A DNA stretch of 64,000 bases from Escherichia coli O157:H7 (lineage in GTDB: Bacteria; Pseudomonadota; Gammaproteobacteria; Enterobacterales; Enterobacteriaceae): assembly GCF_013167455.1 (NCBI RefSeq), contig NZ_CP038328.1. One strand, written 5' to 3'. The notes under the pieces were generated by a model. The model made no database searches, was not told where the DNA came from, and worked only from the letters and a program-made list of their open reading frames with translations. The number at the start of each line of letters is the position of its first letter. The first letter of the stretch is position 1. The translations under genes were made by a program, and so were the position numbers. Shown in pieces: positions 46,039 to 48,508 of this stretch.

Positions 46039-46790
46039 TTAGCGCGTTCGCTGCGAAAGCACCTGCTGCTTATCCAGCTTTTGCACCAGCGGCTGCACCA
46101 CTTTATCCCCATGCTGACCAAAGTATTGATACAGCGTATCGGACGCACTTTTGGTCAGCACCATAATCTCAATGCGTCGGTTGCCCGCGCTTTGCGGATT
46201 TTTCGCGTCCAGCAGCATCTGGTCCGCCATTGCGCTTACCTGCATCACTTTATCTTCCGGCATTCCGGCCTCTTCCAGCACCCGACGAGCTGAAAGCGCG
46301 CGATCGCCCGAAAGGTTCCAGTTGTTGTAGATATTGTTTTTGTAGGCCATCGCATCGGTATGCCCGGTAATAATAATTTTGTTATCGAGCGAGTCGAACA
46401 CTGGCGCGAGCTCCACCAGCAAAGTTTTAAAGAACGGCATAATCTGCGCGCTGCCGCGTTCGAACATATTGCGATTCTGGTCGTCTTTAATCAGCACGCG
46501 TAATCCCTGCGGGACAATCTCCATCTCCAGATTCGCTTCCATATGCGCATCACGGGCAATGGTGTTGATACTGGTTGCCAGCTCGCCAAGCTCGGTGGCG
46601 GATTTCTTCTTCAGCAGCGCCGTTTTCTCATTCACATCACGCGCTTTTTTCTCCGTCTCTTCCGGCACCGCCACGGTGGCAGGTTTTGGCGGATGAGACG
46701 GGCTGATTTTATTTAACGGCGACAGCCCACCACCGTTAAAAATCGACTGCCCGTGCAGCGCGGCGATAATGCTTTCACGCTCGGATTTAC
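46039..46790 (-). pseudogene. lafU: Lateral-flagellar motor protein remnant (MotB-like C-terminal OmpA domain), 5'-truncated at the Flag-2 deletion junction
   Basis: C-terminal ..IITGHTDAMAYKNNIYNNWNLSGDRALSARRVL...NRRIEIMVL.. OmpA-like domain; the upstream part of the ORF is antisense lfhA sequence; junction coordinate approximate. Confidence 0.75.
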
Positions 46791-46794
46791 TGAC

Positions 46795-48508
46795 GCTGTT
46801 GACAATCAACTTTATCGTCGTCACCAAAGGGGCCGAGCGTATTTCCGAGGTTTCTGCCCGCTTTACCCTGGATGCGATGCCCGGCAAACAGATGGCGATT
46901 GACGCCGATCTTAACGCCGGATTGATCAACCAGGCACAGGCGCAAACCCGGCGTAAAGATGTTGCCAGCGAGGCCGATTTCTACGGCGCGATGGACGGGG
47001 CATCGAAGTTTGTGCGCGGGGATGCCATCGCCGGGATGATGATTCTGGCGATTAACCTGATCGGCGGCGTCTGTATCGGGATATTTAAATACAACCTGAG
47101 CGCCGACGCCGCCTTCCAGCAATATGTGCTGATGACCATCGGCGATGGGCTGGTGGCGCAGATCCCTTCCCTCCTGCTCTCCACCGCAGCGGCGATTATC
47201 GTCACCCGCGTCAGCGACAACGGCGATATCGCCCATGACGTGCGCCACCAGCTGCTGGCAAGCCCGTCGGTGCTCTACACCGCCACCGGGATTATGTTTG
47301 TGCTGGCGGTGGTGCCGGGAATGCCGCACCTGCCGTTTTTGCTGTTCAGCGCCCTGCTGGGTTTTACCGGCTGGCGGATGAGCAAACAGCCGCAGGCGGC
47401 GGAGGCGGAAGAGAAAAGCCTCGAAACGCTGACCCGCACCATCACTGAAACCAGCGAGCAACAGGTCAGTTGGGAAACCATTCCGCTTATCGAGCCTATC
47501 AGTTTAAGCCTCGGCTACAAGCTGGTGGCGCTGGTCGATAAAGCGCAGGGCAACCCGCTCACCCAGCGTATTCGCGGCGTACGGCAGGTGATATCCGACG
47601 GTAACGGCGTGCTGCTGCCGGAGATCCGCATTCGGGAAAACTTCCGCCTCAAGCCCAGCCAGTACGCCATTTTCATCAACGGCATTAAGGCCGATGAAGC
47701 GGATATTCCGGCGGATAAACTGATGGCGCTGCCCTCCAGCGAAACCTACGGCGAGATTGACGGCGTGCTGGGGAACGACCCGGCGTACGGGATGCCGGTG
47801 ACCTGGATCCAGCCCGCGCAGAAGGCGAAGGCGCTGAATATGGGGTATCAGGTGATCGACAGCGCCAGCGTGATTGCCACGCATGTGAACAAGATTGTGC
47901 GCAGCTATATTCCTGATTTGTTTAATTATGATGACATCACGCAGCTGCATAACCGCCTGTCGTCGATGGCCCCGCGCCTGGCGGAAGATTTGAGCGCGGC
48001 GCTGAATTACAGCCAGTTGCTGAAAGTGTACCGTGCGCTGCTGACCGAAGGCGTTTCCCTGCGCGATATCGTCACCATCGCCACCGTGCTGGTCGCCAGT
48101 AGCGCGGTGACTAAAGATCATATTCTGCTGGCGGCCGATGTGCGCCTGGCGCTGCGGCGCAGCATTACCCATCCGTTCGTTCGCAAGCAGGAGCTGACGG
48201 TGTATACGCTGAATAATGAGCTGGAAAATCTGCTGACTAACGTAGTGAATCAGGCGCAACAGGGCGGTAAAGTGATGCTCGACAGCGTGCCAGTGGACCC
48301 GAATATGCTCAACCAGTTCCAGAGCACGATGCCGCAGGTGAAAGAGCAGATGAAAGCGGCGGGGAAAGACCCGGTGCTGCTGGTGCCGCCGCAGCTGCGC
48401 CCTTTGCTGGCGCGCTATGCAAGGTTGTTTGCGCCGGGGCTGCATGTGCTGTCGTATAACGAAGTGCCGGATGAGCTGGAGTTGAAGATAATGGGGGCGT
48501 TGAGTTGA
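46795..48508 (+). pseudogene. lfhA: FlhA-like flagellar export protein remnant, 5'-truncated (Flag-2 scar)
   Basis: Homology starts at ..NFIVVTKGAERISEVSARFTLDAMPGKQMAIDADLNAGLI.., corresponding to roughly residue 140 of FlhA; no N-terminal transmembrane region; start coordinate approximate. Confidence 0.8.

Follow-up and report, generated by a model that had tools for sequence, protein, structure and literature searches.

The stretch of Escherichia coli O157:H7 DNA analysed here (contig NZ_CP038328.1), the 64,000-nucleotide window of this report, contains at 46039-48508 the deletion scar of Flag-2, the lateral flagella locus. Alignment to strains with an intact locus shows that one deletion of about 36 kb removed the 5' end of lafU, the 5' end of lfhA and the roughly 40 genes between them. 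The scar is already known, for this serotype too, and published papers cover K-12, B, EDL933 and Escherichia albertii. The most economical account of its distribution and of the variation in its flanks would be repeated transfer, by homologous recombination, of a deletion allele that arose once.

The initial annotation, made from the letters alone, had read the site as head-to-head remnants of lafU and lfhA with both 5' ends missing, and had proposed alignment to intact Flag-2 loci as the check. Nine such loci were compared: 042 (enteroaggregative E. coli), A10, EC15, 2014C-3075, M8, GIMC1409, N1286, EC-16-526 and O157:H16 Santai. The alignments mapped both breakpoints, bore out the head-to-head arrangement, and showed that neither lfhA nor lafU is full length in the window; the missing 5' ends of both genes were present in every intact locus examined. 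In A10, lafU (307 aa) adjoins dinB, lfhA (annotated as flhA, 697 aa) adjoins rayT, and about 40 flagellar and cargo genes lie between. The two genes are the outermost of the intact cluster, read outwards and stand last in their operons, so that the remnants now lie 5' end to 5' end without a native promoter or start. The deleted segment measures 36,138 bp by A10 and about 35.0 to 38.1 kb by the annotated coordinates of the other intact strains, in line with the large deletion that had been proposed.

No Flag-2 genes other than the two terminal fragments are left at the locus in the window. The Flag-2 set has been defined as about 39 conserved, syntenic flagellar genes in clusters 1-3 (PMC6993521); the intact loci list the full set, the window locus lacks it, and the remaining fragments can neither build nor drive a flagellum. 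Three of the nine loci compared as intact carry a lesion of their own, namely a frameshift in flgC of 042 (19971-20404), as the literature reports, a frameshift in fliE of M8 (29888-30228), and an IS1 insertion sequence within the cargo region of EC-16-526 (21666-22363); the other six have no flagged pseudogene.

The junction was mapped by BLAST of the window against the intact A10 locus, followed by a three-way alignment with both A10 breakpoints. Two collinear blocks were found: window 43501-46810 corresponds to A10 5504-8812 at 97.6% identity, and window 46796-48636 to A10 44939-46777 at 94.4% identity. Their A10 counterparts lie about 36 kb apart, and nothing stands between truncated lafU and truncated lfhA in the window. 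The features of the scar, in window coordinates, are as follows.

46039..46807, minus strand: lafU', the 3' 768 nt (codons 53-307 and the stop) of a 307-codon MotB-like lateral stator gene.
46769..46804, plus strand: antisense-lafU bases that supply an in-frame ATG at 46769, giving a chimeric 579-aa frame into lfhA'.
46796-46810: imperfect 15-bp direct repeat in a hybrid copy, which reads CTGTTGACAATCAAC in the scar.
46805-46807: deletion junction ATC, a 3-bp microhomology found at both breakpoints in intact loci, from the three-way alignment.
46805..48508, plus strand: lfhA', the 3' 1704 nt (codons 131-697 and the stop) of a 697-codon FlhA paralogue.
46808..46824, minus strand: antisense-lfhA bases that supply a fortuitous GTG start at 46824.

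In the three-way alignment the window tracks the lafU side through ATC and the lfhA side from ATC on. The intact repeat copies read CTGTTGACAATCCAC on the lafU side and CTGATGATCATCAAC on the lfhA side and are identical at 11 of 15 positions; these breakpoint sequences are unchanged among four lafU-side and four lfhA-side intact alleles. A junction had been placed earlier at about 46790, which is also where the RefSeq lfhA fragment starts. There is indeed a junction, but its true position is the ATC at 46805-46807, 15 bp to the right; positions 46790-46804 are lafU-derived, and 46796-46804 within them resembles the lfhA copy of the imperfect repeat. In the curated MG1655 record, the boundary between the pseudogenes lfhA (b0229) and lafU (b0230) falls within a few bases of the ATC junction. 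The sequence GACA-ATC-AACTTT across the junction is the same in the window and in the K-12 derivative J53, and the junction probe described below matches at full length in MG1655-type records.

LfhA is the export-gate protein of the Flag-2 type III apparatus. The lfhA' remnant is 94.4% identical to A10 lfhA and begins with INFIVVTKGAERI, at residue 131 (I131), where intact LfhA reads FVVFIILMI followed by INFIVVTKGAERI. The deletion took the 5' 390 nt of the gene and with them exactly the first 130 of 697 residues, part of the membrane domain, which makes precise the earlier estimate that an FlhA fragment on the plus strand lacked about 130 N-terminal residues. The plus-strand open reading frame 46769..48508 matches positions 99-656 of the 657-position FHIPEP profile (E=3.3e-189), and intact LfhA matches positions 1-656. 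LfhA' is thus a fragment of a member of the FHIPEP/FlhA export-gate family (PF00771) rather than a protein with the complete domain and its N-terminal transmembrane segments.

On the minus strand, lafU' is 97.6% identical to A10 lafU, and its translation begins with IVNSVSKSERES, at residue 53 (I53) of intact LafU. Intact LafU starts MRKTGN and runs through WKVAFADFTLAMMALFMTLW into IVNSVSK; the deletion removed the 5' 155 nt of the gene and hence 52 of 307 residues, WKVAFADFTLAMMALFMTLW among them. The minus-strand open reading frame 46039..46929 has a single Pfam match, to the OmpA family (E=1.3e-14), whereas intact LafU carries MotB_plug at 19-70 and OmpA at 166-259. The MotB-like C-terminal fragment recognized earlier on this strand is therefore real, at codons 53-307, and retains the OmpA domain only. 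A MotB-type stator combines a membrane helix and plug (MotB_plug, PF13677) with OmpA (PF00691); in LafU' the OmpA-like peptidoglycan-binding domain is still there, and the single membrane helix, its conserved Asp and most of MotB_plug are gone.

RefSeq nevertheless presents lafU as a gene. In an identical O157 record, PGAP annotates lafU at 46039-46824 (786 nt, 261 aa, WP_000207556.1) with no pseudogene flag, because the GTG at 46824 in antisense lfhA restores a start. Sister accessions of this "intact" lafU are annotated in every scar strain that we fetched, whereas lafU is listed as a pseudogene in the curated record of MG1655. The open frames across the junction, the RefSeq lafU included, would on our reading be by-products of the deletion and not genes.

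The scar is the common state of the locus. A 200-bp probe centred on the junction found a full-length match in 4085 of 5426 complete E. coli genomes, and probes spanning the undeleted breakpoints were matched over their whole length by 1290 genomes (lfhA side) and 1323 genomes (lafU side), so that about 75% of the genomes carry the scar, about 24% an undeleted locus, and few any other arrangement. In a published survey, 76 of 100 E. coli lacked Flag-2 and all 76 carried the truncated pair (PMC6993521). The scar is not a chance resemblance: its flanks reach 94-98% identity to the intact locus across 0.8 and 1.7 kb, and its junction recurs in 4085 complete genomes. Eleven E. coli scars, picked to span the range of identity and including O157, a K-12 derivative and O103:H2, all measured 2470 bp from lafU stop to lfhA stop, with the same junction and no indels. 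Outside E. coli, an exact scan for the 21-nt junction, which is blind to diverged junctions in other genera, found it only in the E. albertii type strain NBRC 107761 and in two metagenome contigs. These contigs, binned as "Clostridiales bacterium" and "Collinsella sp.", are short and match the scar region of E. coli at about 95% identity; they are probably binning contamination. The lfhA' on both aligns without gaps.

An identical junction in so many genomes, and in a second species, could have two origins: one event, or the same deletion made many times at a hotspot or by site-specific excision, each scar deriving from the intact locus of its own lineage. As set out below, scar flanks match different intact haplotypes up to the nearest polymorphic sites, scars and intact loci are not differentiated, and the remnants show very low decay, all of which recurrence would also produce. 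The breakpoints themselves offer it little. Between A10 lafTU and lfhBA, 1412 pairs of 15-mers match as well as the breakpoint repeat or better, and exact direct repeats number 191 at 8 bp and three at 12 bp; beside these a repeat of 3 exact bases (11 of 15) is unremarkable, and its repeated use by chance would be very unlikely. The breakpoints, both inside ordinary flagellar coding sequence, showed no recombinase site, inverted repeat or mobile-element end. With an ordinary repeat and breakpoints in plain coding sequence, a hotspot or site-specific mechanism was rejected as the main explanation.

One independent loss was examined. In EC09 (locus 3260-4730), IS1A abuts a truncated lafT (motA); lafT through lfhA, together with rayT, is gone, and lafU is full length. 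EC09 represents an independent, IS1-associated route to Flag-2 loss, and because it differs from the common deletion we counted it in favour of a single origin of the common junction. Since the breakpoint repeat is so ordinary and yet 75% of E. coli, and E. albertii as well, carry one identical junction, a single origin is favoured, and many independent deletions are, in our estimate, very improbable. The deletion would have arisen once, by illegitimate (microhomology-mediated) recombination at ATC.

A single origin can be followed either by vertical descent or by spread, and the retained flanks bear on the choice. We compared the retained lafU (768 nt) and lfhA (1704 nt) among the 11 scars and the nine intact loci, a small sample chosen for diversity. 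Nucleotide diversity of lfhA was 0.045 within scars, 0.048 within intact loci and 0.048 between them; the values for lafU were 0.034, 0.029 and 0.033. When the scars were set against four intact alleles for each gene, no difference was fixed, and roughly half of the sites that varied did so in both classes. No single-nucleotide polymorphism within 130 nt of the junction was tied to scar or intact state in the 11 scars and nine intact loci, and multi-site haplotypes were common to both classes from 11 nt outward on the lfhA side and from 68 nt outward on the lafU side. The O103:H2 scar differs from intact EC15 at 4 of 768 and 7 of 1704 positions, three of the seven lfhA differences lying 38-68 nt from the junction; between two scars the count of differing lfhA' positions can be as high as 110 of 1704. 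Allelic diversity in these flanks looks high overall (mean dS, the synonymous divergence, 0.14-0.19).

The initial annotation had called the deletion ancestral, and in one sense it is, a single junction being shared across E. coli and E. albertii. In the stronger sense, of one very old deletion that preceded the split of the two species and has since been inherited vertically and decayed passively, the term fits the flanks poorly. That history would account for the junction that 75% of E. coli share with E. albertii, where the region is 90% identical, and for the retention of Flag-2 in about 25% of the genomes of both species (for E. albertii, PMC11420993). It would not account for scar flanks that are not monophyletic, that have no fixed differences from intact alleles and that in some strains are near-identical to intact alleles on both sides. 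Pairwise ratios of non-synonymous to synonymous divergence (dN/dS) among scars were 0.032 for lfhA' and 0.045 for lafU', and among intact alleles 0.026 and 0.038 (dS about 0.19 and 0.14); random mutation would be expected to give non-synonymous to synonymous changes at 1.8-3.1:1 and stop codons at 2.6-3.3%. Both frames are open in the 11 E. coli scars, with no stops or indels. The E. albertii lfhA' lies at a dS of 0.24 from O157, inside the range of E. coli alleles among themselves (maximum dS 0.29). We regard such a fossil as unlikely.

Equal diversity within and between the classes, the lack of fixed differences and the closeness of the O103:H2 scar to EC15 together argue for recombinational spread. 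Once the deletion allele had arisen, homologous recombination in its lafU and lfhA flanks would have carried it from one lineage to another, overwriting intact loci. A short donor fragment would be enough to delete 36 kb, and the reverse transfer would need the whole cluster; shuffling among scars would follow. The variation in the remnants would then mostly have arisen under constraint on working lfhA and lafU, and most lineages may have carried the scar through just a small fraction of the history of their alleles. The fullest form of this history, in which one allele was copied into many E. coli lineages and across the boundary between E. coli and E. albertii and most of them lost Flag-2 recently and independently, is one we put forward tentatively, as plausible but short of probable.

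Low decay could also mean that the remnants are alive, the 579-aa LfhA' frame, a periplasmic OmpA-like LafU', or both being expressed and kept by selection. The LfhA' frame consists of half of the membrane domain and the cytoplasmic FlhA-C domain; all 11 scars keep both frames open with no indels over 2470 bp, the two metagenome copies of lfhA' are gap-free, and the dN/dS values of the remnants were counted as no higher than those among intact alleles. In O157, lfhA' has no close intact relative, and its private changes comprise 0 non-synonymous and 11 synonymous. On the other hand, the promoters and native starts are gone. A consensus scan for promoters and terminators returned weak matches only, which we did not use as evidence; the promoter-like match near the junction (46743-46770, 9/12) has its -10 element overlapping the fortuitous ATG at 46769. 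Private variants are enriched for amino-acid changes in scar lineages, at 19 non-synonymous to 69 synonymous as against 4 to 63 in intact lineages (Fisher p=0.0065), with the excess concentrated in the K-12/HS-01 and FDAARGOS_1304 lineages, and the E. albertii copy carries a 22-bp frameshift. No detectable laboratory expression and no synthetic phenotype have been reported for lafU (PMC8824477). Low dN/dS is, moreover, equally explained by variation that predates acquisition of the scar. Signs of decay in the remnants thus exist but are modest; because of the excess of scar-private amino-acid changes and the E. albertii frameshift we treat both remnants as pseudogenes, and consider it most improbable that selection maintains them.

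Several observations weigh against recombinational spread. Exchange or mismatch correction would have to occur very close to the junction, given haplotypes shared from 11 and 68 nt outward. The pattern comes from just 20 alleles, 11 scar and nine intact. The intact parent of the O157 lfhA' haplotype was not observed: chimeric queries that joined deleted-side sequence of A10 to retained-side sequence of O157, searched against complete E. coli genomes, found no close intact counterpart of the first 400 nt of O157 lfhA' among the 1290 intact genomes, the best match being 97.1% over a 550-nt query of which 150 nt came from A10; the best lafU-side match was 98.9%. Such a parent may be unsampled or extinct. 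Finally, decay lies below the level of an inert pseudogene, with dN/dS at 0.03-0.045, all 11 alleles free of indels and stops, and private changes of 0:11 in O157. With these points taken into account, we judged recurrence, selection on the truncated frames and vertical descent each less likely than recombinational spread.

The surroundings of the scar are those of the Flag-2 chromosomal site, between dinB and rayT-yafL, and its neighbours are the same in intact loci and in MG1655. Over 46000-48550 the window matches E. coli O157 chromosomes at 100% identity and most other E. coli at 95-96%. In the identical O157 RefSeq record the genes left of the scar run pepD, prfH', rtcB', yafP, yafO, yafN, dinB; lafU and a partial "FlhA" follow, and then rayT, yafL, dinJ, yafQ and dpaA on the right. 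The two immediate neighbours lie as follows.

44913-45968: dinB, from the annotation of the identical O157 record.
48653-49150, minus strand: rayT, encoding a REP-associated tyrosine transposase, interrupted at codon 99, where W99 has become a stop.

The rayT gene is intact in A10, 042 and K-12 and carries the stop at codon 99 in the present O157 sequence. REP-type repeats flank it at 48524-48640 and 49236-49330, and such repeats are also intergenic within intact Flag-2 loci; the copy at 49249-49326 (minus strand) scores 64.8 bits, at the Rfam gathering score for naRNA4, a nucleoid-associated non-coding RNA. An Rfam scan of 42-52 kb gave no match inside the scar. Further right lies the toxin-antitoxin pair dinJ-yafQ, of which the antitoxin gene dinJ (50285-50545) is intact and the toxin gene yafQ (50548-50824, plus strand) is frameshifted after about 7 codons. 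Among the intact loci compared, lfhA is followed either by rayT or by a hicAB toxin-antitoxin pair. On the other flank yafN-yafO is variable, and in EC15, 2014C-3075 and GIMC1409 yafP comes directly after dinB.

A second, smaller deletion scar occurs at 42663-43386 (minus strand), with its junction at about 43180-43186. It joins a 3' part of prfH (42663-43169) to a 5' part of an RtcB-family ligase gene (43183-43386), both partial. Relative to EC15, in which prfH and rtcB are intact, about 1.0 kb is gone, and the alignment blocks overlap by 7 bp at the junction. Strain 042 also carries both genes, and A10 has a different deletion within the same gene pair.

As a fact of annotation the scar is ordinary and carries little weight, having been catalogued in K-12 as b0229 and b0230. 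Two practical points follow from the mapping. Users should treat the "intact" RefSeq lafU (WP_000207556.1 and its many sister accessions) as a pseudogene, and the exact ATC junction at 46805-46807 is a simple marker for typing the presence or absence of Flag-2. The population-genetic pattern is the only part that might repay further work. With a single junction, as much diversity in the flanks as among intact alleles and very little decay, the locus is a convenient natural test case for the spread of deletion alleles by recombination in E. coli; a moving deletion allele, if that is what it is, would be a concrete, datable case of recombination favouring deletion over insertion and of the species-wide loss of a 36-kb organelle locus.

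Comparison with related loci places the window among known forms. Intact Flag-2 loci share its insertion context, its orientation, the outward-reading lafU and lfhA ends and flanks that are 94-98% identical, and differ in that lafU (307 aa) and lfhA (697 aa) are complete and the breakpoints stand 35-38 kb, or about 40 genes, apart. The scar of E. coli K-12, at b0229 (lfhA, formerly fhiA) and b0230 (lafU, formerly mbhA), has the same site, fragments, junction and length of 2470 bp, and is about 96% identical to that of O157. The differences between the two are allelic only, amounting in the K-12 derivative to 81 of 1704 nt in lfhA' and 17 of 768 nt in lafU'; among the neighbours, it is O157 in which rayT has an internal stop and yafQ is frameshifted. 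The K-12 deletion scar was reportedly recognized by Ren et al. in 2005. Published work notes that E. coli K-12 and B retain only fhiA and mbhA (PMC3032704), and places the deletion within the lfhA and lafU reading frames, with direct repeats at its ends (PMC6993521).

Flag-2-negative E. albertii have been described as carrying truncated flhA and lafU in a region of about 2.5 kb whose identity to EDL933 and MG1655 exceeds 90%, and about 25% of E. albertii genomes have Flag-2 (PMC11420993). The type strain NBRC 107761 has the identical 21-nt junction and the same fragment pair, with 90% identity over the scar region as a whole. Unlike O157, it carries the 22-bp frameshifting deletion in lfhA' (at about 4654 in its locus, corresponding to window 47738-47759) and a rearranged lafU 3' end with extra sequence, and its left side does not align to dinB.

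Other large clusters of E. coli have also left scars between short direct repeats, the type III secretion island ETT2 being one example. There too a large ancestral cluster has been deleted between small direct repeats, leaving truncated border genes, and both ETT2 and Flag-2 are polymorphic across phylogroups (PMC5422975). ETT2 differs in its locus and genes and in showing many intermediate forms of attrition, whereas Flag-2 is essentially all-or-none (PMC5422975), a report with which the one dominant junction found here is in agreement.

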